Shown here in pieces: positions 5,229 through 63,999 of a stretch of DNA of 64,000 bases. Positions within the stretch are counted from its first letter, which is position 1. Each line of letters opens with the position of its first letter. The stretch covers positions 1-64,000 of IMG/VR virus record IMGVR_UViG_3300028833_000121; one strand, given 5' to 3'. The stretch comes from a virus (Duplodnaviria; Caudoviricetes). The notes beneath the pieces were generated by a model that did not search any database, was not told the origin of the DNA, and worked only from the letters and a program-made list of their open reading frames with translations. The translations under genes were made by a program, and so were the position numbers.

Positions 5229-5675
5229 TTAATTTAACTCGCCATTGTATAATGGCATTGCATTTATAATAACACTAGATAAACCGTAATATCCATTATC
5301 TGGACTAATAATCTACTATGTTATTAATGGTTCAGTAGTTTTAAACTATAAAGGCGGATTCACATTTATTAATGCAGAAGCATATGAAGTTACATTAAAT
5401 TCTCCATTCTATTCTATCTATATCTGTCCTTCTGGAACAATATATTCTTCAGGTATAGGATTTACAATAAAATCCTATTTCATTAATTTTTCTTTTGTAG
5501 AAAAAATCTAACTATTTTTAGAAGGAGTTGCAACATAAGGCCCTTCATATTTTTCTCCATCAACTTTAATTATTGTAGATACTTCCATATCTACGGAAGG
5601 ATTTAATTCTTCTAATTCGAATTCAACCGCAGAATTAAGTTCTTCTACTTCCATATCTACAATAACTGGTAACAT
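5229..5675 (-). CDS. hypothetical structural/accessory protein (TAG-recoded)
   Basis: 148 aa open only if TAG=Gln (7 TAG); MLPVIVDMEVEEL...; ends TAA. Confidence 0.75.
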
Positions 5676-5980
5676 TATCCTAAAACCTCCTCTAAGAGAT
5701 TTTCATCTATTTCTATTTCTTTTTCTTTCGTGCCGCCTCTATTACCATTAGAATAAGTCCAATTCAACTAAATTTTAGCCGTTCCTTTTTTAAACCGTAG
5801 TGTATCTCTCTAAGATAAATAGACTTGTGCTCTATTTGCTATTACAGCTACACCACTCGGACTTTCTTTTTTTATAAGAACATTACCCTACTTTATGGCG
5901 AAATAAACTTTATTTGCAGTAGTTAAATTATATTCTTGCGGCAATATTAAAGTAAAAGTTGGTGTAGTTCCTACTAACAT
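5675..5980 (-). CDS. BppU-like/baseplate accessory small protein (TAG-recoded)
   Basis: MLVGTTPTFTLILP...AIK*GN, 101 aa; GTTPT motif common in tail accessory proteins. Confidence 0.6.
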
Positions 5981-5984
5981 AATA

Positions 5985-6407
5985 TTATTCCTCTGCTTTT
6001 TCTTCTTCTATTACAGGAATATAAATATCTTTTACTTCATTAACCGCAGATTCCAAATTCATTTCAAGCCACTTATCAACGCTACCATAAAGCTTTTCAA
6101 TCGCAAATTCCATAGCTTCAGTAATCATTTCTTTGAATACTTTAATTGTATCCTCTCTCGCCTTAGCCGCCTCTTCTTCTGAAAGTTTGCCGCCGGCCTC
6201 TTTAATAGCCTCTACCCAAACTTGGTTCGTATTGCGCGCCGCCCTCTAAAGAATCGCATAGGCTTCCTCCACTAAAGCAAGTTGTTCTTTTGTTGCGCCT
6301 TGTTTACGTAACATATTTACAAGCCAAATACCAAAAGCAATTAAAATTAATTCTAAAAACCGTGGAGCGTATTCAGCAAATAACATCATTAAATATTCTT
6401 TATCCAT
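5985..6407 (-). CDS. putative holin (TAG-recoded)
   Basis: One N-terminal TM segment and charged C-terminus, 140 aa via one TAG, next to endolysin. Confidence 0.6.
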
Positions 6408-6408
6408 A

Positions 6409-6765
6409 TTATCCAATAGCCTCCTCTTCAATATCTCCGTTATGCGCTGCACTAATATATTCATCAACGCATTCAAAAGTTACACCAGCAACAGCACCAT
6501 CTTCTTCATTACCTTCTTCGCACTCATCATAAAGTTCTAAAGAACCATCACGTAAGCGCTCTGTTAATTCTACTTCTTTTGTTTTCTTTATCATTCCACA
6601 AATTGAATATTCTCCGACGCAAGCTGCAAATACCGCTCCAATTAATACATCTGGAGTGCTTCCAGTCATACAAAATACAACTATCATGGCAATGGTAAAG
6701 AGAAGTAAGAAAACAAAAGTTCCAATAATAACTTTTTTAATAAAATCATCTTTATTAGTCGTCAT
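6409..6765 (-). CDS. two-TM membrane protein (lysis cassette)
   Basis: Two hydrophobic helices and acidic tail; between endolysin and holin. Confidence 0.65.
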   Translation of the reverse strand: MTTNKDDFIKKVIIGTFVFLLLFTIAMIVVFCMTGSTPDVLIGAVFAACVGEYSICGMIKKTKEVELTERLRDGSLELYDECEEGNEEDGAVAGVTFECVDEYISAAHNGDIEEEAIG

Positions 6766-7729
6766 ATTTTAAAAGCTCCTTAAAATCCCAAAAATCTTTC
6801 CAAGCCGACATCTTCTAAGTTTTCTTTTCTACGAAATTCCAAACTTTACGATTCGTTCTATCCGTTAACTAGCATCCATACGCGCCGCCTACAAACTCAA
6901 CAATATATCCACCACCGACATATGTACCTAAGTGACCATCACGATGCGCGAACGTACCAGGCTTAAGATTTTTAATCTCACATTCTACGCTATATTTTTC
7001 ACTACCCAAAGTATTCGCATTACTATCAAATTTATTATTTACAAGCTTAAATTTACGCAACCAACCAACTTCCATTCCACTACAATCAGATGCAGGTAAA
7101 TCACCATATTTTGCAACTTCACTTAACATCCACTCTTTTCGACCACCGTCATATTTATCAGGATAACGCTTCGCGCCAACTTCTATTTTTGCAGCAGTAG
7201 CTATATTAAGTCTTAAGTCAGTATTATATAAATTACCTCCCCACATATATAGCGCGCGCACGTCTCCAGAACGATAATCCGGGTCATAACACCATTTAAG
7301 TATCTCTAAACAAATACTGCGTCGCATTTCATTTGTATTTAATAAATCTTTTTCGATTGCTTTGCGCTTAGATGCTTTAATCCAGGTATAAGAATCTAAC
7401 ATACCTTTTTTTGGCTCTGGCTCAGGTTCGGGAGTTGGCATAGGTTCAGGGCCAGGGTCTACCTTAGGCTTAATTTCACCGCGTGCCGCTGCCTCAATAG
7501 CCTCCCAACAAGCTTCATAAATAGTCCCAGTCACTTCTAGTGGCCCTTCGCAAACACTATCATAAGTCTATTGAAATTTTTTAGTAGCTTCAACACTATC
7601 CTACCTAAATTTATTACTTATAATACGTTTAATCTTGCTGGAATACATACCGAGGTCAAAAAGCTTTCGTTTTATATATAAAACATCGGCGCCAGACATC
7701 CCTAATTTTATAGTTCTCCTAAACTCCAT
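6755..7729 (-). CDS. endolysin: PG-binding domain plus NlpC/P60-like peptidase (TAG-recoded)
   Basis: IKLGMSGADV PG-binding start, Pro-Glu linker, SDCSG catalytic Cys and GHLGTYVGGG His; 324 aa through 4 TAG. Confidence 0.8.
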
Positions 7730-9555: not shown

Positions 9556-9966
9556 TTATTCAGTTACTTCTTCCCAACCATATACACCTGGTTCCCACAC
9601 ATTATAATCTGCAATAGAAACCCAAATCTTTCCATTATGACGTACCTTATCTCCCGTCATATAAGGATTTGTAGAACTAGGCTGTACCCATTCTGGTATT
9701 ACGCCTGGGTCAGGAATTAATACTTCTGCAAATAAGCTAACTGCTACGTCTGGCTCCCAACCAGCCTATGAAGTATGAGCTTGAAGAACCTTATAAAGTC
9801 TTCCAACATACTAAACTCTTTCGCCAATAACATCATATTTATGGTTAGGTTCCCAATATTTAAATAGCCTTGGGACATAAGCCGCATCGCCATCGGATAA
9901 AGACGTAGCTGCCTAATTCATTAATTGGCGATATTTTTCGGCCTACCATCTAGTAAACTAAATCAT
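9556..9966 (-). CDS. carbohydrate-binding module (CBM5/12-like) protein (TAG-recoded)
   Basis: LYKVLQAHTS*AGWEPD...EWVQPSSTNPYMTGDKVRHNGKIWVS..DYNVWEPGVYGW. Confidence 0.8.
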
Positions 9967-10196
9967 TCTCCTTCCTAACCTCCGAATATAAAATCTAAAG
10001 CTTCTTGCGGTTCCATTACGGGTAATCCTTCATCCTCTTCAATTGGAATATCAGTTTCAGTATATGTACGATTCATATAAACTGGGTCAATCGCTTCAGA
10101 ATATAAATTACCTGTTTCGTCTTGACGAATCATCATTTTATTATTAGAGTACGCGCAAACTAAATCAGTTCCGCTAATTTCTTGATAAATTACCAT
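9963..10196 (-). CDS. small tail-fibre-associated protein
   Basis: RQDETGNLYSEAIDP..RTYTETD motif; reads through TAG to a TGA overlapping the next ATG. Confidence 0.65.
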
Positions 10197-10218
10197 ATAA
10201 ATTACTCCTTTTAATTAT

Positions 10219-11763
10219 TTATACACTTACAAATCGAGATGAGAAATATGTCCAATTTGTCGATGTGATATAGGCCGAATATAATGAAGATGGAACGTAA
10301 ATACTTCCGTAAACGTTGCCAGTAAAGGTTGTGAATCCAGCAATTGGAGTTGAGAGGAAAGCGTTTGAATTAAGCAAAGATACAACGCTCGGACTGTAAA
10401 GGTACACGGAAAGTAACTTTTGGCAGTTAGTAAAAACAGAAGAACCAATAGTTTCGCATGAAATAAGCCTGACAAGTGTTAAACTAAAGCAATTAAGAAA
10501 AGCCTAATTACTAATAGTTTTGCAGGCAAAAAGCCTAATAGCTGATAAACTACTGCAATATGCAAACGCATTATTTCCTATTGTCGTACAAGAAGGAAAA
10601 CTTACTTCAGTAAGACAAAAGCAAGATGTAAACGCGAAAGATCCTATTGTCGTACAAACAGGGAAATCCGCATAAGTTAAACTACTGCAATACCCAAATG
10701 CACTCGTACCAATTGACGTGCAAGAAGGAAAATTTATACTCGGTAATTTATAGCATCTCATAAACGCACTACTTCCAATACTCGTACAAGCAGGAAAACT
10801 TACCGTTTGTAAATAAGTACAAAATGCAAACGCATTACTTTCAATACTCGTACAAGAAGGAAAACTTGCCGTCGATAAACGACTACAATAATAAAACGCA
10901 CTACTTCCAATAGTTGTACAAGCAGGAAAACTTACCGTCGTTAGGCTGGTACAAGATGCAAACGCATACTTTCCAATATAAGTGCAAGAAGGAAAACTGA
11001 CCGTCGATAAACGACTACAAGATGTAAACGCACTATAGCTAATACTCGTACAAGCAGGAAAACTTGCCGTCGTTAATTTATAACAATTATAAAACGCACT
11101 GCTTCCAATACTCGTACAAGCAGGAAAACTTACCGTCGTTAGGCTGGTACAAGATGCAAACGCACCTTGTCCAATACTCGTGCAAGAAGGAAAACTCGCT
11201 GTCGTTAATTTATAACAATTATAAAACGCAAAACTTCCAATATTCGTACAAACAGGAAAACTGAACGTCGATAAACTGAAACAATTATAAAACGCACTAC
11301 TTCCAATACTCGTACAAGCGGGAAAACTTACTGTTTGCAAATCACTACAATACGCGAACGTACCTTGCCCAATTTTCGTAACCGAGGAGTGCTCGAACGA
11401 GGCGAACGCGTCGTGATTTTCAATAAAATCTACAACAGTGTTGCTTCCTCCGCCACCTTCATAGTTTCCAGTAACTCCAAATATACTAACGCCGCTCTTA
11501 ATGTTCCCAGCTACAAGATTGGCGTCACCTTTTATGGTCTAATTTCCAGTTAAAAAAGTCCCACTACTAATTGTTTGATTCGATGTAGTAGGAGTTATCG
11601 TCTACGCAGCCTATGTCGGGATATCTTCTATCACATCCGCAAAACCTTCATCCATATCCCATGTTAAAGGAGTTGAACCACCGGTTTTTAAAAGAATAGC
11701 AGTTGCGGTGGCGGACAATGCGCCATCAAGACGCTCGCTATCTATTAATTTATCTAACGCCAT
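10219..11763 (-). CDS. BspA-type leucine-rich-repeat protein 1 (TAG-recoded)
   Basis: About 13 tandem 22-aa repeats (SFPxCTSIGxxAFxxCxxL), N-terminal tail-like linker; 514 aa joining ORF fragments at TAG. Confidence 0.85.
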
Positions 11764-11776
11764 TTATTTCACCTCA

Positions 11777-12673
11777 TTAAGTCCTACGCCACATATAATT
11801 CATACCTGAAATAATAGTTTCCTAACTTTCAACCCTATGGACAGAACCATTTAAGCTGCATGTTAAACTATTGTTATTACTAGTATTAGGTTTAATATTA
11901 TTATTAACTATTACCCAATTACCCGTATTATATCTACTTGCAATAAACTATTCCCATGTCATACCGTTTACCGCTGAATAACTTGATAATACTTCAACAG
12001 TAAATGTTATAATTTCTCCGTAGTTTCCTCCACTCCACGAAGAAATTGTTAACGTATTACTTCCATTAACCGTAATTGTCCCCGCCGTACCGCTTGAAAC
12101 GTACCCGGCAGAAACCGTTGGAGTAACGGATTGAGAACCACTTACAGATGCCGTGATAAGGCCACCCGAAGATACGCTGATGGTCGGGTTGGCGGTAATC
12201 GTAGTCGCTGGCGTAGTCGCAGAACCGCTTGCGACAGAGGCCGATGCGTAGTTCGTCACATCAGTTGTCCCGCTTGACGATATGGTTTTCGTGCCGCTGA
12301 CGAGTTCAGATGCGGATACCGTGACCGGAGTGCCGGTTTTCGTGCCGCCGGTAATGTACCCTGTGGTATTTGTGACGGACGGGGTGACCGAAACTGAGTT
12401 GCTTGACACGGTTCCCTTCGTTGCGGTAGGCGTTCCCGCCGTCCCGCTACTAACTGTTTTCTAGACCTATGAAGAATAAACTCCCGCAGGTATTGTTGTT
12501 GTTGCGCCAGACACAGTCACATCTGACGCACTTTTTGTTACTAACGCGCCGGTCACAGTTGTTCCATCGGCGCCTAAAGCGGTATTTGGGGATACTAAAG
12601 TTGAACTAGTTACGGTCTTATCAGTAACATCAATCAACGTATTCCCGTTTAATATAACTTTTGAAACCGCCAT
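11777..12673 (-). CDS. Ser/Thr-rich tail fibre-like protein (TAG-recoded)
   Basis: MAVSKVILNGNTLID start; ORF fragments in one frame; 298 aa. Confidence 0.75.
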
Positions 12674-12698
12674 TTTTCTACCTCACTTTATTGAAATT

Positions 12699-13739
12699 TT
12701 ATTTATCTTTATAAAGTTTTTCAATATGTTTTAACCAATTATTAATTGTGATATTTTCCATCATCATTCCTTCGTTCACGGAACGAGTACGAATTTGATT
12801 AGATATTTGCATTTTATCATTATCAGAAATTTCATTCCATAATTTCTTTCTCTTTCTAAAATACTTCGCAAAATATTTTTCCGTACTATCTCTATACTCT
12901 TTATTTTCCTAATCGCGCCATTCAGGTTTATTCATTAAATAATAAGCATCAAAAATAAGGAATCCAGTAAAGAACATAGCTTTATTTTTAACATTACGTT
13001 TTAAAAATTCATCTACAAGCGCATCGTTACTATCAATCATATTTTTATAAGTTTTAAGTATATATTTAGGATCGTGACGACAAACGCTTTCATCTCTCCA
13101 CTTCCATAAATAAAATGGCGTCTAACAATATTTTACATTTGTTGAAAGATTCTAACATTGAATATTAAAGAAACTATCTTCATGAATAGTAAGTTTCTCA
13201 TTCCAACGAATATTCTAACTGAGCAGATATTGACGACGATGAACTTTTCCGTGAACAAAAGTTGAATCCATATCATGGTTAATAAACATTGGACTACCCT
13301 TTTTCATGGCGGGCATCACTACATTCCCCATCTAATCTCTCTGTTCAGGTATATCCTGCGGCAGATGCGACTCTTCAATAAATACCGAAACTAAACTATC
13401 AAACCCATTTCCTTCCATTTCTCTAAATATTATCCATAAACCGCATACATTACAGAACATATCATCTGCGTCACAGAACATTACATAATCTGCGGTCGCA
13501 TGATTAAAACACGCATTACGAGTGCCACTTACGCCACGATGCGGTTCGAGATAATATTCAATTTTAAAAGGATAAGAATTTAATAGTTTTTCTGAAAGAT
13601 GAACATCTGATCCATCATTACAAATTATAACTCCTACTTCCGTAAAAGAAACTGCCTATTGTAATGCAATTGAATCTAATAAAGGTTTAATAATTTCGTC
13701 TGTTTCGTGATATTGAGGAACTAAAATTTGAAGTTTCAT
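12699..13739 (-). CDS. glycosyltransferase family 2 (TAG-recoded; missing from ORF track)
   Basis: MKLQILVPQY, IICNDGS, GVSGTRN, YVMFCDADD, HEDSFFN; 346 aa. Confidence 0.9.
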
Positions 13740-13843
13740 AAATACCTCCATAAAAATATTTATTATATTTATTAAACGGCTTGTGTTATGGCACATTATC
13801 TCACTTAGGGCGCGACCCTTATGCTACCCGTTTTATATTAATT

Positions 13844-15406
13844 TTATATACCTACAATTCTGCTTGAAAAATAAGTCCAGTTAGTAGCTGTCTTATAAGA
13901 ACTAAGAAGGGATGATGGAACGTAAATAGAACCATAAACGCCTCCAGTAGAGGTTGTGTATCCGGCGATTGGGGTTGACGAAAATACGTTGGAATTGGCA
14001 AGCGACACAAGTGACGAACCAAGAAGATATAAAGAAACAAGTTTAAAGCACCTGCCAAATGCAGAGGCACTTATGTTTATACAAGCAGGAAAACTTGCCG
14101 TCGATAAATTGTAACAATAATAAAGCGCATTCTCGCCAATACGTGTGCAAGCAGGAAAACTGAGAGTTTGCAAACTAGTACAATATGCAAACGCATTCTC
14201 GCCAATACTCGTACAAGCAGGAAAACTGGCCGCCGATAAACTGTAACAATATGCAAACGCACTACTTCCAATACTCGTACAAACAGGAAAACTTATCGTC
14301 GTTAGGCTGGGACAAGCAGAAAATGCGTATCCGCCAATACTTGTACAAGCAGGAAAACTGAGAGTTTGCAAACTAGTACAATAACGAAACGCACTACTTC
14401 TAATAGTTGTACAAACAGGAAAACTTGCTGTTTCCAAACATCTACAATATGCAAACGCATTCTCGCCAATACTCGTACAAGCAGGAAAACTGGCCGCCGA
14501 TAAACTGTAACAACTATAAAACGCATCATTGCCAATACTCGTGCAAGAAGGAAAACTCGCTGTCGTTAATTTGTAACAACTATAAAACGCACTACTTCCA
14601 ATACTCGTACAAACAGGAAAACTGATCGTCGATAAACTGAAACAATTATAAAATGCATTACTTCCAATACTCGTACAAGCAGGAAAACTGAGAGTTTGCA
14701 AAGAACTACAAAACGCAAACGCTCCTTGTCCTATAGTCGTTACAGTAGAATCCTCATAACTCGTCATGGTTCCATGATTCTGTATGAAAGATGCTGCTCC
14801 GCCACCGCCGCCTTGGAAAGTTCCAACTACTCCAAAAATACTAATTCCACTAGCTATATTAGAACTAACTAAATTATTATCTCCATTTACTATTACAGAA
14901 GCAAATCCATTATATCCAGAGTCTGGACTTACTATCTAAGTAGACGCAGTAGGCATTATAGTTTTAGTCTAAAGCATTACTGGATCGCCGCTAATACTTA
15001 CTATTGTACCACCATGGGAGTCTAGAGTTTCTACTACCGTTATTCCAGCTTTAGTATAATCTATTATAATGTTATCCGTGCAGTATTTTCCGGAAGTAAG
15101 AAGGGTCTTAGTTCCGCTACTATTCATAGTGGCTATCTGCGAACCAGCGTAGGATATGGAAATATCAACAGATTCCCAGATAGCATAAACAGACTCATGA
15201 GTATCAGTAGTTTCCCCCGCTTGATAAGAAGTTCCAGTTCCATCTCTGGCATCATTCCACTCTTTGAACACTTTTCCTGCTGGAGCGCTAAACCCGCACT
15301 CTTCAATAGTAAGCAGGATCTAATGCATCATATTAGTTCTGGTCTGGTATATAGTGTCGTCTGAAGAATCATAATTTCTCCAATATAATCTTGGTAAGCC
15401 GGCCAT
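13844..15406 (-). CDS. BspA-type LRR protein 2 with N-terminal Listeria-Bacteroides-repeat-like domain (TAG-recoded)
   Basis: APAGKVFKEWNDARDGTGTSY domain, then about 11 LRR repeats and a C-cap paralogous to LRR protein 1; 520 aa. Confidence 0.85.
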
Positions 15407-18400
15407 CAGCTAACACCTCCTTGATAAGTGGGCAAGTCTGCGGCCGCCCATGCGCCGTTAACTACTGTAAGAACTTTGCCGTTGTCGGATGCACTTACAG
15501 CTGGTAGTAATGATGCAAGCACAGTTGCAAGCTGAGCTGGCGTTAACGTGATCTCATTAGCGGTTCCAAGACCAAGCGTAAGACTACCAGCTATAGCTTC
15601 GTTACCATCCCAATCTACAGTTAATGCATTAGAACGTGCTCCATTAGCAGTACCATTACCAATTATAAATACATATTTTTTTGCCCCATTACCATATTGA
15701 GTATAATTAGTGCCATCATCATCATCTGGTATATTATATTGGCCAATAACCATTGATGCTCTACCAGTCGCTTCAGTACGATCACCAAAACTAAATGATA
15801 TCAAACCAGATGTTTTAGCCAGCTGGCCCAAAGCAAAAGAAAGGCCAGCTAATGTTTCACATGCACTACCACCAGCTATACATTGTTGTGCATGTGTTAT
15901 GGATCCAAAACCTAAAGCTATTGAATAACTTCCTTGAGCTAATGTGCGTCCGCCTGCGGCGATACTAGCATATCCTGTAGCTCTTGTTCCTCCTCCTACA
16001 GCAAGAGAAACAGCTCCAGAGGCATCTGAGCCACCGCCTAAAATAATACTTGATGAACCTGTTCCTTTATTGATAATAGGGGTTCCATTATCTTTTAAAA
16101 AATATGGTAATTCTTCATATACTAATTCTTTATAATTTCTACTAATCTGTTTAATAGTAATTATATGAGAAGCAGATGTAGAATTTGTCCAAATAATTAC
16201 GTTTGTATCTCTATCATAACGATATGTTATTACAAAAGGTAAATTTGCTTTTTCAGTAGGAGCAAAATTTAACAATGTTGCATTTCCTAATACTCTACAA
16301 TCCCATATATTATTAATTGATGTAAATCTAGAATTAACAGCACAACTACTAGATCTAAGCTGTGCATTACAGATATATTCTACGCCATCCCAAATAACAA
16401 GATATTTGTTACCAAGCACAAACTCAGAAGTAGAAAAACCAGTTAAAGCATTATTGGCTGATCGATATAAATTTGTAGCATAATTACCCTCTGAATCATC
16501 ATCTAAATAAAAACCAGAAACAGTCACATTATCTACTAATGTAGTTATTGTTTCAGAGTCTGGGTCATATCCAGACACATCCTATACGATATTCGTTGTA
16601 GTCTCACCAATAGTTGACTAAATACTACCAGTTGTTACATCATAACTAATATCTGAAATACTATCACTTATTTTTAAATATGTAGTATCAATAACATTTC
16701 CTTCATTATCTTGAGCTGCTTTTGTTGCATATGGAATGGTTAAATCCTCATTTGTACCATTAGTATTAACTCTTAAATAATCGCCATTAATAGTAGCACT
16801 ATGAACACCACTATTAGTAAGTGTTAATATTCCATTGCTATAACTTTTAGATAACCCCGTTCCTGTAGTGATCTTCGTATATGCTTCACGAGTAGTAACA
16901 CTCCATCCAGTAGAGGAATTAAGTTTATATACGAAAACCTGATCGCCTTGCTGTGAATCACTATGGGTAGAAACGGAACGATAGTATTGGAATTCAAATT
17001 CCGTAGGAGTAGTCGAATTGTTCACATAAGCAAGAAACGCCATGCGGTTCTGCGAACCAGTGCCTGGATTACTATTACTAGAAGCACGGCAGTATACAAC
17101 TTTATTAGCCTAGTATGCGGCTAAAATTTCTGCATAAGTAGAAGAGCCATAAGAACCAATATACATACCAGTTATAAAACCAGAATCATTAGTTAAATCA
17201 CTAGTTTTAGATGGTATTGTAAGAGTTACTGCTCCGGTGCTACCATTAACACTTGTCACTGGATATGGTGGAGGATTACTTGCACTATATTGTTGAACAT
17301 TGTCTACGTTTCCAAGGCCAATATCAGACTTACTTACATTATGCGGGTTACCACTTGTAAGCTGAGAATGGTCATAAGCCGTCTTACCACGATCTCCACG
17401 ATAAGCAGTAGAGCTCGTCTCGCCGAGAGCAAGAGAAGCGCTAATTTCTACGAAAGCCGTGCCACTCCACCGATAAGTCTTCTCGGTACTGAGATCGACG
17501 TAAATCTTACCTGTTTCACCTGAAATCTCAGTAGTATGAGAAGATTCCTCATAGAATTTTGAATTGTAGTAATACCCCTCAATAACATCATCCACATAAG
17601 ATGGAAGCTAAGAAGAAGGAACCCTACCGTTAGCATCCAACTCAGCAACACCGTTAGCTACGCCCTTCAGATTGGCGGCCATGCGGCTTGTATCACTTGG
17701 ATGTACATGATCCGCGCGACTATAATTATTTGAAGTGCCTGCTGCGGCAGTTCCATCCATTTGCGGATTAGCATCAGACGCAGTTGGAACACTAACTGTT
17801 GGGGCATTTGTCCAAAGTCGAATGGCGCCGTCCTTATAATAATATACTGGGTGATTTAAAGTCATCTCTATCATAGTAGCACTATAAGCAATTCCAAGAA
17901 AAATATAAATTTTTCCATCATCTGTGCTTGGTAATGCCTATACATATGGAGTAGTACTATCAATAATCGCACTACCATTGCTCTACGGCGCGCATTTTAT
18001 AAATACTGGCCGTTGAGTTGTAAGTGTGAGAGCGGCTCCTGTTCTATTAAATGAGTACCCTAAAGTAAGTGTGTATTGTTGCCAGATTGCAGAAGCTGCA
18101 ACGTTCGCCTCTGCAGCGTAACTAGTACTATTACCACAATATACAATTGACCCAAATGGATTAATTGGTCTCTAATTTACAGTTTTTGTACTTGTTGCAC
18201 TATTATCTGTTCCGGTATTAGCTGGTACCCAGTGTGTATCATCAGCTGAAGTAAATAAAATACGATAATATCTAAACTTATCATATGTTTTTAAAGTATA
18301 GCTATTAGTACGAAGCTAATAACCAATAGTATTTGTATTAGCATCATAACCACGATAACATATCCACGCGCCATCTTCAACAAGCGTACTATCATAAACG

Positions 18401-18720
18401 AATAGCATTGTATAATTAATATTAAATATTGTAGTATCACGTGTAGGCGCAGTAGGAGTTATGTCGTTGCCCGTCGCCATATTACTATATGACGGTTTAG
18501 CTCCTAAATCATTAATATTAATAGTAAAGCCCGATGCAGAAGTTACAATACCATTTTTTAGTAAAATAGTTAATCCATCATAATATTCTGTAATACCTGG
18601 AATGGTTGCAGTATAAACCGTATTTGTAGAAGTGCTATCTACCTGTCCAAAGAAAATACCAGTAGCCTAAATACTATAATCTGTATTGTCTGGTAATGTA
18701 ATATGACTAATAGTTGCCAT
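15406..18720 (-). CDS. large tail fibre/adhesin with YadA-head-like repeats (TAG-recoded)
   Basis: Four ORF-track fragments plus the N-terminus share one frame (1104 aa); C-terminal A.G..S.A.G 14-residue repeats. Confidence 0.8.
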
Positions 18721-18739
18721 ATGTTTACTCCTTTATTCG

Positions 18740-18786
18740 CTTATACAGCGCGAATCATATAAAATTATGCGACCCGCGCTGTATAC
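18740..18786. repeat. intergenic inverted repeat
   Basis: TATACAGCGCG...CGCGCTGTATA between late genes. Confidence 0.6.
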
Positions 18787-18804
18787 GAATAACTTTTAAT
18801 TTTA

Positions 18805-20376
18805 TTAAGTTCCTTTAGTAACACTGACATCAGTCGTATCTTTAAGAACTGTAACGCTATCTTTATTATTCCAGGCTGTATTAGCTCCACTAGCGGTAGC
18901 ACTAATATCTACGCTAGTAGGTGTAACGGAAATTGTAGAACCAGTTCCAAGAACTGTGTCTGTACTAGGAGTACCAAGCGCAGTAACCGCATCTCCAGTA
19001 CCATCCGCGCCAACCGCGGTACCACTTGCACTTGCACTTAAATATCTAGTAGTTGCTGCCCCAATACCCGTTGCAACAGTAACATCACCGGCTGTCCCAC
19101 TTGCAATAGTGATGGTTGGGTCTGTTACGCTGAAAGTAGAAGCAGTACCAAGTACAGTATCTGTAGAAGGACTCGCGTAACCTGTAACCGCATTAAATGT
19201 ATCTCCAACGCTTACATCAGTTACTACATCCGCGCCACTTCCACTGGTAGTTGTAGCACCAGTAGCGACAGTTGTCGCACTTGAAGCTGCGGTAGGAATT
19301 GTAATACTGCTAGGTGCACCTGCTGAATAAGTGGTCTAAGTATTCATAGTAGCTGCGCCAATAGTCAAGACACCATTACTTACGCTCACGCCCTTAAGCC
19401 AATCAGTATTTGTTGTACTTGAAGTACCCGCGCCAGTTGCTGTGGTCTAAGAACTTCTCGTTTTTACTACATCAGGTGTTGTGCTACCACTTACTCCAGT
19501 TACTGTAGTAGTAGCTAATTTCTTTGTTGTTGGAGTAACTGATTTAACAGCACTCTAAGTACTAGGAGTACCTAATCCAGTAATAGCTGTAACGCTATCA
19601 CCACTCGCGCTTACTGCACCACCACTTGCGCTTGCAGAAAGCTTTGTAGTAGTTGCAGTACCTTGAGACTGCACATAAGTAATACGTCCTGTGCTGGTAC
19701 TACTATTAGCAGTTAAAGTTATTGTAGGTTGAGTAGTGACCTTAACGCCCTTTAAAAAAGTATCAGTAGAAGGTGTGCCCAATCCGGTTAAAGCTGTAAC
19801 TGTGTCCCCACTAGCCGTTACACTTGCAATATCAGTTACAACTCTTACCTATTGATCGTAACTTTTTGGCGGTGGCCCACTTGCTGGAGTGGTTGAAAAT
19901 GTAATAGTAGGCTAAGTGATAGTGAATGTAGCATCACTACCAATTACTGTATCAGTCTACTTAGTAAGACTTACTCCAGTTACTACATTACTTAAATCTA
20001 TCTAAGTATCACCAATTTTCTCCCAAGTTTTACTACCAGCTTCACCAACAGGTGCATATTCATCATATTTATCCAGCGCGCCACCTGCTTGTGTCGCAGA
20101 CTTTACTAAATAAAATGCGCCAGCCTGCGCGCTATCTGCTGTTAAAGTACCAGTATAATTTGTGCCATTGTAAGTAACTACAACTCCTGCGGGAATATTG
20201 GCTACAACTGGTGCTGCAGAACCATCCCAGGCGATAATATATGCAACACCACCAGCAATAGCCTGACTTAAAGTATCAACAACGTCTCTAATTTCCCTAT
20301 CAGCAATATAATAAGTATTACCAGAAGGTAAAGTTATTCTATCAATAATAGGTGTATTTACATCGACATATGCCAT
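18805..20376 (-). CDS. Thr/Ser-rich repetitive virion protein (TAG-recoded)
   Basis: 523 aa; internal D.VTA.TGLGTPST repeats. Confidence 0.75.
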
Positions 20377-20389
20377 ATCTTTATCTCCT

Positions 20390-20749
20390 TTAGTTTCTAT
20401 TAAAAATTAATTCGCCTTCAATAACTTCAGAATAATCATTTACATTTAATTTATTATTCCAAAAAGTTTTTTCGACAGCAGTAACGTGAGCATTAGCATC
20501 ATTTATATGTGCTAATAACTCCTATCTTAATTCTTTGTCAACAAATGGAAGATCTTGTACATAAGTTTGCCCGTCTCCAACTTTGATTCCAGGCACCCAA
20601 GTAATAACATTATCCCCATTTATTTCTTCTGTTATACTTTTATAATCGGTATAAATTATAATTTCTCCATCTAAAGGAACAAAACCTCTAGCATGGTTCC
20701 AATTATCTGTAGTATCTCGTTTTAATTTTATTCTCGCGCTAGTACTCAT
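20390..20749 (-). CDS. tail-fibre N-terminal (Mtd_N/hyaluronidase-N-like) domain protein
   Basis: RIKLKRDTTDNW...PLDGEIIIY...KVGDGQT..DLPF. Confidence 0.7.
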
Positions 20750-20751
20750 AT

Positions 20752-21081: not shown

Positions 21082-21235
21082 CGACATCACCGCCATCAAA
21101 AATAATTATTAAATCTAGATCTAAGTTGATACTACTATCAACTTTATTAAACTATCCTCTAAAATTTACCTAAGAATTACCAGAATTAAAACTAGACTTA
21201 AAGTAACTTTCATTATTTTTCATTCTGCCAATCAT
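21029..21235 (-). CDS. small hypothetical protein (TAG-recoded)
   Basis: 68 aa with IIIFDGGDV motif, overlaps both neighbours. Confidence 0.5.
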
Positions 21236-45714: not shown

Positions 45715-45717
45715 TAT

Positions 45718-48133: not shown

Positions 48134-49356
48134 TGGAAAATACCAAAGGATTAGATAACTTTATTAATTCAACTCTTGGCCTCGGGCATGGCTATTTAGC
48201 TAAAATGCTCGAACTAGAAGAAGAGCGTCAAGAACGAAATATTGAATTAATTGCTAGTGAAAATTATGCTTCTGAAGCAGTTAGGTTAGCTATGGCTTCT
48301 TGTTTAACTAATAAATATGCTGAAGGCTACAGCGGAAATAGATTCTATGGTGGCTGTGAATATATAGATAAAATAGAAGATTGTTGTAAGTAGACCTGGC
48401 AAAGAGTATTTAATACTGACTATAGTGTAAATGTATAGCCGCACAGCGGTACACAAGCTAATCTTGCTGTTTATAACGCACTATTAAAACCAGGAGATAC
48501 AATATTTTCATTAGACCTAAACAGCGGAGGCCATTTGTCTCATGGCTCATCAGCCAATCTTAGCGGTAAAATATATAAAAGAATAGCTTATTCTGTTGAT
48601 GAAAATGGATATATAGATATGGACCATATTTTTAGTGTTATTTTACGCGAAATACCAAAACTAATTATAGTTGGCGCCTCTGCATATCCACGTCAAATTA
48701 ATTTTAAATGGATAAAAGATATAATTGACGCTTATAGACCCAAATTTAATATCTATCTTATGGCAGATATAGCGCATATTGCTGGATTGGTCGCGGCCGG
48801 TGTACACCCAAGTCCATTCGGATATGCCGATGTAGTTACAACTACTACACATAAGACTTTGCGCGGTCCACGCGGTGGTTTAATCTTCTGTAGACCAGAA
48901 TTGGAAAAGAAGATTAATAGTGGTGTATTTCCTGGTACACAAGGCGGCCCATTAGAGCATGTAATACTTGCTAAAGCAGTCTGCGCGGAAGAAGCATTAA
49001 GACCCAGTTTTAAAGAATACATTAAGTAGGTAGTTTCTAATGCCAAAGAAATGGCAGATACCTTTGTCGAATTGGGATATGATGTAGTGACTGGTGGAAC
49101 GGATACTCATTTATTCTTAATTGATTTTTCTAAAACACATCCAGATCTTACAGGGCGCGCCGTGTAGGAAGAATTAGACAAATATGGTATAACTCTTAAT
49201 AAGAATTGCGTTCCTAATGAAAAAAGAAGTCCTTATTTAACAAGTGGTATCAGAATTGGTACTCCCGCCATGACAACGCGCGGTTGGAAAGAAGCAGACT
49301 TTTAGAAATGCGCACTTAAAATAGATAGTATAATTAAAAATTTGACTAATAAATAA
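48133..49356 (+). CDS. glyA: serine hydroxymethyltransferase (5 TAG)
   Basis: [62 protein letters not shown]. Confidence 0.97.
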
Positions 49357-49370
49357 AAATATGATATAAT
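49342..49370 (+). promoter_or_regulatory. sigma-A/70-type promoter
   Basis: TTGACT-17 nt-TATAAT, preceded by TGA. Confidence 0.75.
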
Positions 49371-49396
49371 ATTAATAGTAGGAGGAAACTATAGCT

Positions 49397-50224
49397 ATGG
49401 AAAAATTTGGTTTTGGCGTAGCTCCTTCTAAAATAGATTTGCGCGATTATCGTGCTAAATTTAAAGGAGTTGCTACTGCTAAGTAGTTCCCCGCAGTATT
49501 TGAATTACCAATGCCTGCGGTTAAAAATCAGCATGATGTAGGTAGTTGCGTCGCGCATTCATTATCTACAGCAATCGAATATTTTAATACTGTTGAAACC
49601 GGAGAAAATAGGACTATGAGTACCGGATATATCTATGGCAACCGGCGCGGTAGTTCTTGGAAGGGAGAAGGTATGAGAGTAAGAGACGCACTTAAAAATG
49701 CGTGTAGTTATGGAGACGTTTAGAAATATCTTATGCCCGCGAATGTTGAAGTTCCGGAAGCTATTACTATATTCGAATCAAATATAAATTAGTTAAAGCC
49801 CTACGGGGTAAAAAACAAGATTGCTAAGTTTTTTAAACTAAATGGCGCGGCCGCGATGAAACAGTGCCTTATGGAACATGGGCCGTTACTTGTTATTGTA
49901 GAATGGCATAGCGACAATTAGCTTAGAAACGGTATCTTAACTATTAGTAATAATAAGGATACTCTTGAAGGACAGCACTGTATGGTTTGTTATGGTTGGA
50001 ATCAAAAAGGTTGGATGATACAAAATTCTTGGGGCAGTACCTGGGGAGATTTAGGCAGAACAATTATTCCATTTAATACTAAGTTTGTTGAAGTTTGGGG
50101 TATTTCAGATTCTAAGAATATAGAGAATGATGGATTAAAGATTAAAAAACCATATCAAAGCGAATTGGGCTAGAAGTTAGCTAAAGGACTTAGTGATTTA
50201 TTAAATAATATTTTAAAGCGTTAA
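49397..50224 (+). CDS. papain-like C1 cysteine peptidase (TAG-recoded)
   Basis: VKNQ..VGSCVAH, GQHCM..YGW, IQNSWG..WG; 275 aa. Confidence 0.88.
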
Positions 50225-50242
50225 AAGGAGTCATATTTCTTA

Positions 50243-50899
50243 ATGATTAAGGTAGAAAATATAGAGATTTTTAATTTCGATGGTGCTATGAGAGGATTGC
50301 GAAATCCAATGAATAGTTGGGATAAGAGCGATAGTTATACAGATGAAATTGGAATTTTTAATATTGGTTCTAATGATATGAAGCTCGCGCAACGTATGTT
50401 GAACGGCGGTCCTGAAGAATCTAAATTTATGCGGCAGATAATGATAAGTATGGATATAGATGCCCCTATTTTTTGGTGGAAAGAAATGGACACCTATAAA
50501 GTAGGAACTACTGCTAATTCATGCTCTACAATGCACAAACTCACAAGCGAAGAAATCAGCGCGCAAAACTTTTCATTCATTAAACCAGAAGAATTTGAAG
50601 ACCAATATAATCAATATTTTATTAAAACCGCACAAGAAGAAATTATTCAATATTGTGAAATTCTTCGTAAAGCATATAATAAAACAAAAGATAAACGCAT
50701 ATGGCGCGCACTCATAGAAATCTTACCTGAAGGATGGAATCAGCGTCGCACATGGACAGCAAACTACCAAGTTTTAAGAAATATTTATTTCCAGCGTAGA
50801 TTTCATAAATTAGACGAATGGAGAGAGTTCTGTAAGATAATTGAAGGATTACCTTATGGAAAAGAACTTATTTGTTACGAAAAAGCGAAAAAGGAGTAA
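50243..50899 (+). CDS. ThyX-like (flavin-dependent thymidylate synthase-like) protein
   Basis: KFMRQI...DIDAP..WWKEMDTY, R.LI..LP..., NY..LRNIY.QR; canonical RHR motif not evident. Confidence 0.5.
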   Translation: MIKVENIEIFNFDGAMRGLRNPMNSWDKSDSYTDEIGIFNIGSNDMKLAQRMLNGGPEESKFMRQIMISMDIDAPIFWWKEMDTYKVGTTANSCSTMHKLTSEEISAQNFSFIKPEEFEDQYNQYFIKTAQEEIIQYCEILRKAYNKTKDKRIWRALIEILPEGWNQRRTWTANYQVLRNIYFQRRFHKLDEWREFCKIIEGLPYGKELICYEKAKKE

Positions 50900-50905
50900 A
50901 TTATT

Positions 50906-51250
50906 ATGACAATTAATTACAAAAATAAATTTTATATTTATCACCCCGATGGGAAATTTACAGAAGAACAGCTTATGAAAATTCTTGATGCGGCGTACAA
51001 TATGGGAAAGAATGAAGGTTATAATAACGGATATGAAGCCGGCAGAAAAAGCAATATGACTATTACTTATCCATATTATAATACACCGACTTGGGATTGG
51101 ACCAAAGTAACCTGTAATTCTACAAGCGGAGATGCGGTTATTCCAACTGTAACAACAGCAGCTTCCAATAATCCGCCCAGTATAACTACTACTGCTACTA
51201 CTACTAATAATATATGCCGGGAGTTTAAGTATAATGGAACAGAAAGATAA
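50906..51250 (+). CDS. hypothetical protein
   Basis: 114 aa, Thr-rich C-terminus. Confidence 0.6.
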   Translation: MTINYKNKFYIYHPDGKFTEEQLMKILDAAYNMGKNEGYNNGYEAGRKSNMTITYPYYNTPTWDWTKVTCNSTSGDAVIPTVTTAASNNPPSITTTATTTNNICREFKYNGTER

Positions 51251-52157
51251 TATCGTTGAAGAAGTAAAAAAAGAGGTTAACCCTATTACTGATAGCTTTG
51301 AAGCAATCTCTAAAATTATGGTCGGAGACGAAGGAGTAGAAGACGCAACCGCTATGTTTGGCGCGCTGCTCTCTATGCCAGACGATGAATTTAAAGATGT
51401 TTCTACAATTCTTTTAGACGAAATTAATCGCTCTCTAAATACTCCCGCTGAAAGAATTGCACTTGTAGCAGCAATGACTGCATAGGGTTATACTGGTGAT
51501 GATTTAACTGATACATTTCAAGAACTTTGTAATGAAATAGATACACAACTTACAGATTTATCTCAAATTAAGCGCGATTGGCTTAAGCAGTTAATGGGAG
51601 CTGTTACTAATGCAATTAATGAAACAGAAGGAATTTCTAAGAGATATATTCGAATCCCATACGAAAAGTGCCACAAAGATGCAAAAACACCTGCTTACGC
51701 CCATGAGACAGATTCTGGTATGGATGTATTTGCCCTTGAAGATATTACTCTCGCGCCAGGCGAGCAGAAGATTATTCCTATCGGTATTAAGGTCGCGCTT
51801 CCCGCCGGCTATGAACTACAAGTTCGCCCGAAGAGCGGTGTAAGTGCAAAGACCAAACTCCGCGTTGCTAATGCCCCTGGTACTATTGATGCCGGTTACC
51901 GGGATGAGATAGGGGTTATTATTGAGAATGTAGAACCGCCTATCCGCTCTATCGCAACTGATTTTGCTGAATCTCCCAATGATTTCATTCCAGTAGGCGC
52001 AATTGAATTCGGTCGTTCTTATACAATCGGAAAGGGTCAAAAGTTTGCGCAGTTAGTTCTTTCTGAAGTACCAAAAGCAGTACTATATGAGGTAGAAAGC
52101 GTAGGTGAAATTGGCGAAGACCGCGGAGGCGGGTTCGGCAGTACTGGCTTAAAGTAA
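51234..52157 (+). CDS. dut: dUTPase with N-terminal helical extension (one TAG)
   Basis: SGMDV, RPKSG, GTIDAGYRDEIGV, KFAQL, RGGGFGSTG; in frame with upstream acidic domain via TAG 51483. Confidence 0.92.
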
Positions 52158-52159
52158 AT

Positions 52160-52885
52160 ATGGGTGTAATAAAAATAGAATCTATCTAGCAAGAGTTACC
52201 AGAAGGTTGGAAACTCATTTCAACCTCGTATAAAAACTTAGATAGTGGTCTAGAGTTTGAATGCCCAGCCGGTCATAAGGTTTATGCTAGTTGGAAAAAG
52301 ATGAGAACGCGCGCCGAATGCCCAATTTGCAAAGAAAAGGCGCCACTTATAGATAATACTGTGATTCCAAAAAAGAAGGGTGTTTACCGCACAATCGGTA
52401 TTGACCAAGCCACACATATAAGTGGCTATTCAGTATATGACGGGAAAGAACTTGTTAAATTTGGAACCTTTACAGTAAATGAAACAAATGAAATAGAACG
52501 TGACAACACAATAAAAATGTGGCTGTGTTCTATTATAAATAATTGGCAACCCGACGTAATAGGGCTTGAGGGTATTCAATTCCAACAAAATGCCGCGCGC
52601 AATATAGGAATTACAACATTTGAAACTCTCGCACGATTATAGGGTATACTTATGGAAGCTTGTTATGAACAAAAGGTAGCTTTTGTAATATGTCCTACAA
52701 ATACATGGCGCGCGCATTGTAAAGTTAAAGGTCAAACTCGTGAAGCTAAAAAGAATTCAATGAGACAGTTAGCGCGCGAGTGGCATGGAATTAACGCTAG
52801 TGAAGATGAGGCAGATGCTATTGGCATTGGAAAATACGTTGCCGAGACATACGGTCTTGTACACCAACTTCAAAGTTGGGAATAA
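52160..52885 (+). CDS. RuvC-like Holliday junction resolvase with N-terminal zinc-binding domain (2 TAG)
   Basis: ECPAGH...CPIC; IGIDQA, GLEG, EDEADAIGIG. Confidence 0.85.
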
Positions 52886-60200: not shown

Positions 60201-60536
60201 ATTGGCAGCTGGAACATTAGAAAGAGAAAAATTTAATTTAAGCTGATACATTGTACCATCATAATGAGAAGTGGCTGTAGCGTAATACTCTCCCTCACTT
60301 TGTATATAACGACTAGATACACCTGAATAATATATACCACTACGTGAACTTCCAAAAACATTTGAACCATAAATACCACCAGAATTATTTAGTGGTGAAG
60401 GGTTGTCTGGATACAATGAACTTGTTTTTGCATCTGCAATTGCCGCAGCGCTAGAAGCTCCAGTACCGCTTCCAAAAGAATTAGTAGTTGCACTTCCATA
60501 ATAACTAGTCATTGAACTAATATTAATACTTGGCAT
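57231..60536 (-). CDS. large Ser/Thr-rich Ig/FN3-like repeat tail protein (TAG-recoded)
   Basis: Two ORF fragments in one frame joined through many TAG, ~1101 aa; only part of the middle checked codon by codon. Confidence 0.7.
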
Positions 60537-60552
60537 TTATTCTTTCCTCCTT

Positions 60553-63500
60553 TTACTCCTCAACATACAAGCAATAATATCCATTATTTACTGCATATTT
60601 TAACATTTCATTTCCATTTGTTACTATCATACTATTCTTATTAGTGACTATAGCGGCATCATTAATAATTTCATTAGTTAAAATTTCTACATTTGCATTA
60701 CTGCTAGCTATTTTAACGCCGTTAACACCATTATTTAACTGGATATAACTTAATCCATCTTCTAAATAATTCTATCTTAAAATAGTAGTACCAGTATTAA
60801 TATTAGTAACATTAACACCAATCTAACCACCATTAAAATTAATAAAAGGTACGACCTAACTATCGTAATAAAAACCATTGTCTGAAAGAACTAAAGTTAA
60901 AATATCATTAGTTTCACCACTTTCTTCATCAATATTTCCTATCTACTTATAAAAACCAATACCACCTTTTGTATTATCAGTATTATAAATTTTTAAAGTG
61001 GGCTCATTTGTAGCAGAATTATTGCCCCAAATAATAGGAGCCTTTATAATAGTATTAGTAATTAATGAATCACTAATTACACTACCTTTAAATTCGCCAC
61101 TTCGCGCGAAAACATTACCTTTATCAGTAACAATAAAGGGAGATGTTCTAATCTACCCATCCTCAGTGCCATTCGCGCCACCCCAAAAGATAATATTATC
61201 ATCTGTGTATATAACTGGTTGCTCGCCAGTAGAAATTCCAGCACTCCAATCATTATAATTAAAAGAAATGGTGCGCTGAGTATTAATACCTGCATAATTA
61301 TTATTACTACCACTATTACCAGCTGTTGTTAAGCTGCCGCGTAAAAATACATTATCAGCATATAAACCATAACCGATGCCTTCTGGCGCGCCACTCAAAT
61401 CACCAAGTAATAATCTAATATTATAATCAATATCACCGGTATCACTTTTATTAATTAAATTAGTGAATTCTTCCATCACTAACGCACGTGGCGGCAATAC
61501 CATATTATTATCATCAGAATTTATACCAATTAATAAATCCGTCTACGCGCCATACCCAAAAATAGTAGCAGTATTATATTTATCTTTCTAAGTTAAAACT
61601 GTACTATAATCAGTATTGCATAAATAAACATCTATGATATTATTATTTTTACTAGTTATTTTTCCATAGCGAGTATCATCACCTGATAAACCTATAATTA
61701 TATCTTTTCCAGTTTCACTATCAGGAATATAGTTTTTACTATCATTATTTAAAGTAATTTTTAATGTATTGGCAGTAGAAGTAGTCTCGATATTTTCTAT
61801 TTCAAAAGTGGGCTTAAATATAAAAGTACCGCCCATTGCCCTAGTTTTTTCAGTTACAAAACTTGCTGCATTAATAGTAGAAGCATTTATAACACTAGAA
61901 GTTATTGACCCACTAAAATCACCATCTGTCGCATGAATTGTTCCACTAAATTCTCCATCATGCGCGATTATTTTCCCAAAATCGGCCACAACTCCATTCT
62001 AAGTATCCTATATTGACCAATTATTACCAATAACATTTCCTTCATTAGTGAGAGTAAAATAATTAGTATTGCCATTTACTAAAGTAAGTACATTACCATT
62101 ATTCTCATTTGGATTTAATAATTTTAAATTTCCTACCGTGACTGAACCACTTACTTGCGCGCCGTTACCTATATCTATATTCTTTACAGTAATACTAGAT
62201 TCTTTAACAACTCCATTTTCTGTATAGCTAGAATTTAATATTAAATCATTAGAAGAAATAGAATGCTCACTAATTTCAAAACCACCAATATTACCATTAT
62301 TAGAAGTTATAGTGCCACTAAATTCTCCATCGGTTGCATGAATAGTGCCGCTAAATACGCCGTCACCATTCATATATAAACGTCCAGTATTCTCATCAAT
62401 AAAAAATACATCTGTATAATTATTATTACTGCCAGTTTGAATTTTAAAACCACCGTTAGTAACTGTTAGACCCTCTAAATCAAATCTTAACCCAGTATTT
62501 TCTATAGCAGCAGTAATATCTGCCGCATTAACAGAAAATTTAACCATCTATTCATTTAAACCATTTTTAATTTGAATGTATTTTTCAGCATTTAAAATAG
62601 AAGCATCTAATTGATGAACCTAAATAAAAATAATTATATCTTCACTACTAAAAGATTCAAAAAATAGTTTTAAATTAGTAATAACATCAGCAACAATAAA
62701 ATCAGTATCATTTATTTTACTATTTAAACTTCCATCATATAAGTCTAAATATAAGTTCTAAAAGTTAAAATAATAATAATATTCATCATCTGTATTTAAT
62801 TTATTGTATAAATATCGTTCATAATAAGCAGGTTTTATAATTTCATTTAATTTATAACTACTTATTTGAACCTATATTGTAAAATATGTATTTCTAATAT
62901 AATACTATGTAGATGAACTATATACAGTGCTATTAGTACATTGTACATAATCATTCTAATTATTTTTATAATAATATAAGGTTTTGTTCGCATTAAAAGT
63001 AGTTGAATCAATATTGACCTTGCTATATTCTACTATAGGAATATTAGATAATTCAATTAAATCATATCCACCGATCTACAATTCTGAAGAAGGCGCGAAG
63101 CTATAAGTAATGGTATTTGAGTTCTATGAATTACTATTAAACTTTAGTATTTCTTCATAATTAGTATGAATAGTAAATTTCCCAGCATCTTCTCCATCTT
63201 CACCGTCTTTAGCATACATACTTATAATATGTGGCGTTGTATCACTAGTTGTATTATCAGTATACAATGTATGCTCATAATTCCATAAATATTTATCTGT
63301 CTAATCTATTGTTGGAATACTTCCAGGCGGACAAGCAATCCAATCCTAAGAACTTGTAGATGGCGCGGCTGTAGTACTAGTTTTTGCATAATAATTTGTT
63401 ACAGCACTAATACCCTTTCCATCTTGGCCAGGGCTACCTGGCGCACTATATGTACCAATTATGCGTTTACTAGTTTCACTATGTGTAGAATCAGAATAAG

Positions 63501-63999
63501 TAATATATTCATAATTCCATAAATATGGATTACTGGCAGTAGGAACTACAACACTAGTACTCCAAGTTCCAGTCGGTGCTATAGTACTAGAATTACCAGC
63601 TTTATAATATTCAGTTATTGTACTAATTTCTTTTCCATTTGTACCGTCTTCAATTGTAATACTAGTACCATCACTAAAATTAACTGTGGTAGCAGTTCCA
63701 GAATGAGAAGTACTTGTAATTGTAACACTAGTTCCATCAGCACCATCTTCAACTAATTTAGTTGGAGTCACAAAAGTAATAGAAGTACTTGGATTATTTC
63801 TATCAATTATTGCCGCACTACTTACATAACATGGATCATTACCACTAGGAATATATGTATTCCAACCCTAAGTATATCCAGTTAAAACGCCAGTTTCAAA
63901 ATTATAACTAGTAGCAGTAGGCGTATCTTGTTGACCAAGTGCGGTTGAACTTCTTTTATATAAAAATATTGTAGCCTGATTATATCCATTAAGACCTGG
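60553..63999 (-). CDS. very large tail/host-specificity protein, 5' end outside window (TAG-recoded)
   Basis: Four ORF fragments share one frame; GQDGKGIS and NPYLWNYE.ITYSD repeats, ATDG.FSG repeats. Confidence 0.75.

Follow-up and report, generated by a model that had tools for sequence, protein, structure and literature searches.

Comparative evidence that TAG is read as glutamine, with a load that differs among gene modules, in a siphovirus distantly related to SPbeta

The first 64,000 bp of the viral contig IMGVR_UViG_3300028833_000121 (the window in what follows) raise the question of what TAG means in a phage genome whose tail genes are crowded with this codon and whose replication genes are nearly devoid of it. 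The original prediction for this DNA was that TAG is reassigned to glutamine (Gln), with a steep gradient from early to late genes that would act as a timing switch. The window is part of a linear contig of 83,932 bp with 34.7% G+C, the completeness of which was estimated by CheckV at 65%. IMG/VR relatives of this phage are 100–145 kb long. From 3.5 to 83.9 kb the contig is collinear with the relative G1 (IMGVR_UViG_3300028805_000075, 121 kb), which runs 39 kb further, through genes for the capsid, portal, terminase and an RNA ligase and more tRNAs, and the closest relative is represented by two pieces, G2 (77 kb) and G5 (45.9 kb).

Whether TAG terminates translation was addressed by determining the density of a greedy set of open reading frames (ORFs) under alternative codon tables. 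The coding density was 0.58 with table 11 and 0.60 with TGA read as Trp, and it was restored, to 0.95, only when TAG was read as Gln in a table 15-style prediction. Under that code 77 ORFs contain 354 in-frame TAGs, and 312 of these fall inside tblastn alignments to about 45 related loci and genomes, for which all ORFs were translated with X at TAG. Genes were interrupted by TAG only, never by TAA or TGA, and the same recoding pattern was found in independent assemblies of other samples. The claim that all genes end in TAA or TGA was true (63 and 14 genes, respectively), but it becomes circular once TAG is counted as sense. The single TAG of RecJ (39034) lies 36 codons before the TAA, and relatives align beyond that TAG. 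Judged by these homologies, TAG is a sense codon, and gene prediction with table 11 would mis-call about 40% of the genome and break up, among others, the genes for the tape measure, the tail proteins, SHMT and NrdD.

The residue inserted at TAG was assessed by scoring candidate residues with substitution frequencies taken from those same alignments, each site counting as one unit. The states aligned to the 312 TAG sites were Gln (315), TAG itself (306), Lys (111), Asn (80) and Glu (73). The site-weighted log-likelihood was -656 for Gln and -861 for Lys, the next residue, while Ser, Leu, Tyr and Trp ranged from -900 to -1319. The reciprocal comparison agreed, as TAG in the relatives was found opposite Gln of this genome at 24.8 per 1,000 and opposite other residues at 3.1 or less. 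Among columns in which at least five relatives aligned with a sense codon and at least 80% of them agreed, 15 of 16 held Gln and one Ser. Gln was also the best fit for TAG in the genomes of relatives that bear a suppressor tRNA. In addition, TAG together with CAA/CAG was near constant across modules at 2.8–4.3 per 100 codons, and CAA/CAG alone fell from 3.0 to 1.1–2.1 per 100 codons where TAG is used.

The five conserved Gln positions named in the original prediction all carried TAG as described. The TAG in the NVxPHSG motif of SHMT (48436-48438) corresponds to NVQPHSG in PDB 2dkj, that in NTxYNTIG of NrdD (46981-46983) to NRQYGTIG in PDB 4coi, and codon 7 of the UvrD-like helicase (24965-24967) is aligned to the Q-motif Gln of Rep (PDB 1uaa); these three homologues are distant and belong to the standard code. 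NrdG had no match in the PDB; the TAG of its NCxN motif (47732-47734) is Gln in 13 of 13 relatives. Likewise, the TAG of the RuvC-like protein (52640-52642) is Gln in 21 of 23 relatives, an alignment to E. coli RuvC (E value 0.7) being too weak for use at this site. Together, these data strongly support the reading of TAG as Gln.

The distribution of TAG was expressed as the TAG share, TAG/(TAG+CAA+CAG), per gene or per module. The modules of the contig are as follows.

150..2010, minus strand: tRNA array (Phe, Lys, Ile, Arg, His, Leu(tag), Tyr, Ala, Leu(taa)), truncated where the contig stops
2278-5001, minus strand, to 5108 with its promoter: Ro-like operon (a Ro60/TROVE-like vWA gene and small ORFs), TAG 0/25
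5229..7729, minus strand: holin-containing block, TAG 65% (15/23)
9556..21567, minus strand: BspA-type leucine-rich repeat (LRR), GT2 glycosyltransferase and fibre-like proteins, TAG 42%
21766..22857, plus strand: ATP-dependent DNA ligase, TAG 0/11
22830..26196, plus strand: HNH, 167-aa ORF, GIY-YIG and UvrD-like helicase, with 5, 2, 15 and 4 TAG
21766-26196, plus strand: the whole ligase/HNH/GIY-YIG/UvrD block, TAG 43%
26367..43907, plus strand: replication core (gyrB, gyrA, AAA_24, DnaB, primase, RecJ, HNH, DnaE), 5,707 codons, TAG 4/177 (2%)
44245..52885, plus strand: nucleotide metabolism and recombination (NrdD, NrdG, SHMT, C1 peptidase, dUTPase, RuvC-like), TAG 25%
52928 to contig position 83,619, minus strand: late virion/tail block (small ORFs, tail proteins of 1101, 1262 and 1756 aa, Dit and the 2600-aa tape measure), TAG 52%

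The TAG share differed among modules far beyond chance (chi2 168, p 6e-33). The uneven usage that had been described as an early-to-late gradient is therefore highly significant, but it follows the module or transcription unit and is not monotonic along the DNA, since the ligase (0/11) is followed by the TAG-rich HNH/GIY-YIG/UvrD stretch and this in turn by the replisome at 2%. The lack of TAG in replication genes held up well: the ligase, gyrB, gyrA, 311-aa, 178-aa, DnaB, primase and DnaE genes contain no TAG in 4,349 codons. The label SSB given to one product in the original prediction found no such support, as only PHROGs of unknown function were matched. The Ro-like gene was also TAG-free as claimed (0/16, all 16 Gln codons being CAA/CAG), and so was RNase H when read from the ATG at 8220, although one TAG at 8211 lies upstream of that start. 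The counts of one to five TAG in each recombination and dNTP-supply gene were correct. The selection involved acts on the reading frame and not on the trinucleotide, since out-of-frame TAG in replication genes (22–23 per 1,000 codons) equals that in late genes, whereas in-frame TAG is reduced to 0.7 per 1,000.

The pattern is conserved at the level of the gene, the per-gene TAG share being correlated with that of relatives (Spearman 0.70 for G1 and 0.76 for G2). The selfish HNH and GIY-YIG genes were informative in this regard, because they differ by location: the HNH gene within the replisome block has 0/11 TAG, and those outside it have 5/7 (HNH) and 15/28 (GIY-YIG), indicating that TAG load follows the transcription unit and not the function of the gene.

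That virion and lysis genes are TAG-rich was correct in general, with an exception in the probable tail tube gene (contig 79560-80432), which has no TAG against 8 CAA/CAG here and none against 9 in G1. Its assignment is based on its position ahead of the tape measure gene, a match to PHROG 2729 (E value 1e-54) and weak matches to tail-tube proteins in the PDB (E value 0.06). A similar situation was found for the capsid candidate of the relatives, assigned to the YonB family by the ESM Atlas, which has no TAG in G1 and one TAG among about 144 Gln codons across the orthologues of 11 relatives, while TAG makes up 20–43% of Gln codons in the loci around these orthologues. Structure prediction with AlphaFold gave no usable model of either candidate (predicted local distance difference test score 46 for the tail tube and 34 for the capsid). 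The portal and TerL genes of G1 have 14 TAG each. The avoidance of TAG by the most abundant late proteins indicates that suppression is costly and that translation efficiency also shapes codon usage; the cost would lie in competition with the host release factor 1 (RF1).

Independent support for the division into early and late genes was obtained from promoters. We defined a strong promoter as a sigmaA-type sequence with at least 10 of 12 positions matched and an extended -10 TG. Ten such promoters were found, all on the coding strand directly upstream of genes of the early and middle regions, namely those of the Ro-like gene, a small ORF, RNase H, ligase, GIY-YIG, gyrB, the ORF at 31883, the 178-aa/DnaB pair, DnaE and the C1 peptidase. 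Three of these are referred to below.

5108-5080, minus strand: strong promoter of the Ro-like operon
21658-21686, plus strand: strong promoter of the ligase gene
23811-23839, plus strand: strong promoter of the GIY-YIG gene

Four strong promoters lie in the replication core (26367..43907), and none were found in the late blocks (about 43 kb, including the LRR/GT2/fibre block). By length alone, the probability that ten of ten would fall in the early half is about 6e-4. Only this top class was informative, as total counts of promoter-like sequences did not exceed those of shuffled sequences.

The GIY-YIG gene (23769-24946, plus strand) is of separate interest. With TAG at 15 of its 28 Gln codons it is the densest in the plus-strand block, and it has a terminator of its own at 23769-23796, ahead of its promoter. 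As read from its sequence, this gene would be transcribed by the host polymerase and yet be untranslatable without suppression.

The decoding machinery was sought with ARAGORN and Infernal over the 84-kb contig and the first 1 kb (1,019 nt) of an adjoining contig described below. The statement that the window holds no tRNA with a CTA anticodon and no release factor was borne out, and it extends to the whole 84-kb contig. No protein with an RF-1 domain or with a GlnRS/GluRS catalytic domain was found in this contig, G1, G2 or G5. By contrast, a tRNA(CUA) was present in all relatives whose sequence includes the tRNA region: G1 at 7136-7212, L003, G5 at 6715-6804 (L101) and L104 at 4632-4721. In G1 and L104 this suppressor is the first gene of the tRNA array and directly follows the TAG-free Ro-like operon, a position from which it would be made by the host polymerase with no need for suppression; in the present contig the Ro-like operon is likewise directly upstream of the tRNA array. 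The suppressor of G5 is beside the RNA ligase region. The suppressors of the relatives have a non-Watson-Crick 1:72 pair (U.C, U.G or A.C) and G73, and among 33 phage tRNAs only the tRNA-Gln genes pair a weak 1:72 (A-U or U-A) with G73. A weak 1:72 pair and G73 are identity features for GlnRS and GatCAB. Overall sequence similarity between these suppressors and tRNA-Gln was not informative. The suppressors of G5 and L104, the relatives nearest to this phage at the suppressor/tRNA loci, measure 90 nt and have the extended variable arm of class II tRNAs, an unusual architecture in a Gln suppressor.

The lack of a suppressor on the contig is probably a consequence of its incompleteness. Bases 1-127 recur unchanged at the start of metagenome contig Ga0247610_10000652 (47,536 bp), and a shared end of 127 nt is the signature of an assembly break at k=127. 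The closest relative was broken in the same way, G2 and G5 overlapping by exactly 127 nt. In the 1,019 nt examined, the adjoining contig adds tRNAs for Arg(acg), Cys, Val and Trp to the array. Joining the two contigs gives a full genome of about 131 kb, of which one third is unseen. The 84-kb contig lacks TerL, and Ga0247610_10000652 probably holds the capsid, portal and terminase genes together with the suppressor. A search for the exact 127-nt overlap pattern in the viral contig collection gave no match, and the rumen metagenome-assembled genome (MAG) RUG12586, which is considered below, does not have the partner region of the contig. The suppressor would therefore either be on the unseen 47.5 kb, as in G5, or have been lost. 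A less likely course is that this strain lost the canonical suppressor and relies on one of the long-arm CUA type or on the insertion-bearing tRNA at 1422-1510.

Two unusual RNAs were noted at the tRNA array.

1422-1510, minus strand: odd tRNA, 89 nt, 35 bits with Rfam (above threshold), missed by ARAGORN
17-149, minus strand: tRNA-shaped RNA of about 133 nt with a 7-bp acceptor stem, T arm and encoded CCA

The first has an insertion of 13-14 nt in its anticodon loop, without which the loop would be GU-CUG-AG (Gln) or, by ARAGORN -i, Leu(gag). In the D arm and the anticodon stem it is similar to the relatives' suppressors, and none of the relatives compared has a homologue of it. We rejected this tRNA, as encoded, as a suppressor because it has no CUA, its loop reading CUG or GAG without the insertion. 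The second, between tRNA-Phe and the contig end, has about 57 extra nt in its middle, is identical in Ga0247610_10000652 (L078) and matches no Rfam family. The surroundings of the tRNAs yielded neither a theta/HDV-like ribozyme nor any other Rfam family.

We consider it highly probable that this phage uses genetic code 15, with UAG decoded as Gln by a phage-borne suppressor tRNA(CUA). A timing switch, with its order of expression and any regulatory benefit, can be proposed from the arrangement of the genes. The genes to be translated by an unmodified host would have no in-frame TAG and host sigmaA-type promoters, as do the Ro-like operon, ligase and replisome. A suppressor at the head of the tRNA array, as in the relatives, would be made early, and as it accumulated the lightly loaded genes for nucleotide metabolism and recombination would become translatable first, followed by the genes for tail, lysis, portal and terminase with their heavy load. 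Suppression would compete with host RF1, such that the most abundant virion proteins would keep TAG out although they are late.

Several findings weigh against this proposal. Neither a tRNA(CUA) nor release factor 2 (RF2) nor GlnRS was found on the 84-kb contig, and the interval 2011-2277 before tRNA-Leu(taa), where the suppressor is sited in G1 and L104, contains no tRNA or remnant of one. Two TAG-bearing genes, GIY-YIG (15 TAG) and the C1 peptidase (5), are behind strong promoters. The TAG-free late genes mean that timing alone does not account for the pattern. Finally, the comparative evidence is mostly from relatives with the same recoding.

Of the alternatives, the one that survives best accepts TAG as Gln and views its uneven distribution as a passive by-product with no regulatory function selected. 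CAG would drift to TAG in the presence of the suppressor, and TAG would be purged from genes expressed before the suppressor or at very high output. The fast turnover of TAG sites (45 shared with G1 and 280 unshared) is in keeping with this, as are the TAG-free tail tube and capsid candidates, which are abundant late proteins, and the contrast between the HNH gene of the replisome block and the TAG-rich HNH and GIY-YIG genes outside it, in which local context and not function is decisive. On the other hand, the per-gene share is kept where orthologues are about 30–95% identical. TAG also makes up 50–65% of Gln codons in late genes and the Gln codons opposite TAG in relatives are mostly CAA, not CAG, which together exceed the equilibrium expected of simple one-step drift. 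Most predictions are common to the passive by-product and the switch, making them hard to separate by sequence, and we regard the former as possible, but doubtful.

It is less likely, in our view, that the TAG load is a graded, selected dose instead of an on/off lock, the share being fixed while the sites turn over. On such a scheme there may be three tiers (0–2%, about 25% and 42–65%), from which the virion proteins of highest abundance would be exempted separately. The absence of TAG from the tail tube and capsid genes, together with a per-gene share that is kept while sites turn over, suggests that the efficiency of suppression shapes codon choice besides timing.

A reading of TAG as a residue other than Gln (Ser, Leu or Tyr, for example) is very improbable. 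The long extra arm of the 90-nt tRNA(CUA) of G5 and L104, and the failure of similarity to tie these to tRNA-Gln, could be taken to favor it. However, in this genome Ser, Leu and Tyr trail Gln by 240–570 log units, the G2+G5 genome with its long-arm suppressor likewise fits Gln best (-807, the next residue being at -1097), TAG occupies universally conserved Gln positions in SHMT, NrdD and the UvrD Q motif, and the weak 1:72 pair and G73 of the suppressors match tRNA-Gln. Still more improbable is the absence of any recoding by the phage, to which the missing suppressor might point, with the TAGs either real stops in a decayed or misassembled genome, against which stand homology through 312 of them, their being alone in interrupting genes and their recurrence in independent assemblies, or read as sense by the host, against which the TAG-free early genes and the phage-borne suppressors of relatives argue that the host stops at TAG.

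The predicted proteins place the phage as a siphovirus distantly related to SPbeta. Its nearest isolate by DnaE is YorL of SPbeta-like Bacillus phages (36.7% identity over 98%); no DnaE in the phage records searched reaches 60% identity, and megablast of the DNA against phage records gave no match. A phosphoesterase cluster with 97% identity was linked to a 126.6-kb contig. We ruled out a crAss-like phage (Crassvirales), for which a podovirus-type structural module with giant virion RNA polymerase genes and crAss marker genes would be expected, as the giant ORFs encode the tape measure and tail proteins, the 2600-aa tape measure ORF matching 13 PHROG tape-measure families, Dit is present, and DnaE is nearest to YorL of SPbeta.

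Earlier work on gut phages has already described such recoding and its bias between early and late genes, and the present genome is a clear further example. In several clades of gut phages with TAG read as Gln, replication genes are unrecoded and structural and lysis genes recoded, and a code switch partway through infection has been proposed (bioRxiv 10.1101/2021.08.26.457843), and peptides have proven Gln at TAG in crAss-like phages (PMC9523058). This phage resembles the code-15 gut phages of Borges et al. in having TAG at Gln positions, unrecoded replication genes and suppressor tRNA(CUA) in its relatives; it is unlike known code-15 phages in that neither the suppressor nor RF2 is on the available contig, and it is unlike crAss-like phages in its siphovirus-type 2600-aa tape measure, Dit and DnaE. 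It offers a clean natural example outside the crAss-like phages, in which the independent features of promoter type, TAG load and functional module coincide. No discussion of TAG-free tail tube or capsid genes was found in bioRxiv 10.1101/2021.08.26.457843.

Three described groups are comparable. The Agate clade of cattle and pig gut, with a lineage of about 127 kb, a clade mean of about 154 kb and members using TAG, TGA or the standard code (bioRxiv 10.1101/2021.08.26.457843), is alike, by description only, in its animal gut source, genome size (about 131 kb here), unrecoded replication genes and recoded structural genes. Two TAG-recoded Agate phages encode RF2 (bioRxiv 10.1101/2021.08.26.457843), unlike this contig, G1, G2 and G5, in which none was found. 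phAss-1, of the proposed Phassvirus, is a Caudoviricetes phage of about 136 kb whose genes for TerL, portal, tape measure and tail fibre contain TAG and which has many tRNAs, including tRNA-Sup(CTA), but no aminoacyl-tRNA synthetase of its own (PMC10607447), and may be likened to this phage in its described size and TAG-bearing structural genes. The SPbeta-like phages SPBc2 and phi3T have the nearest isolate DnaE, are comparable through the YonB family of the capsid candidate and are siphoviruses of about 130 kb, but they use the standard code, and the low identity to them marks the present phage as a distant lineage, one that comes from gut or rumen communities not yet cultured.

The DnaE of this phage is 93% identical to one encoded on a 47-kb contig (L184, CACZGA010000005.1) of RUG12586, a rumen MAG with the label Erysipelotrichaceae, and further matches were found in Bacilli MAGs, Acutalibacteraceae MAGs and one Methanobrevibacter MAG. 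The MAG match and the SPbeta-like affinities give a weak hint of a host from the Bacillota. The phage is from gut or rumen, and the sample probably from rumen.

Three further regions deserve mention. In G1, about 1.2 kb beyond the terminase gene and on the same strand, a 451-aa protein with 7 TAG (L071:9830-11185, minus strand) has a C-terminus like that of a sigma factor (PHROG 5767); should this protein direct late transcription, its own translation would first need suppression. Within the LRR/GT2/fibre block, at 10219-15451 (minus strand), two BspA-type LRR proteins (514 and 535 aa) flank the GT2 glycosyltransferase and a 298-aa unknown protein. Lastly, a free-standing HNH endonuclease gene is directly upstream of DnaE (39163-43907, plus strand). 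The DnaE ORF of G1 is 1320 aa long, and in several relatives (L022, L023, L026-L029, L031) the DnaE match extends over about 4.7 kb, as against 3.6 kb; the longer DnaE in relatives suggests that the polymerase gene has taken up insertions (an intein or homing element).

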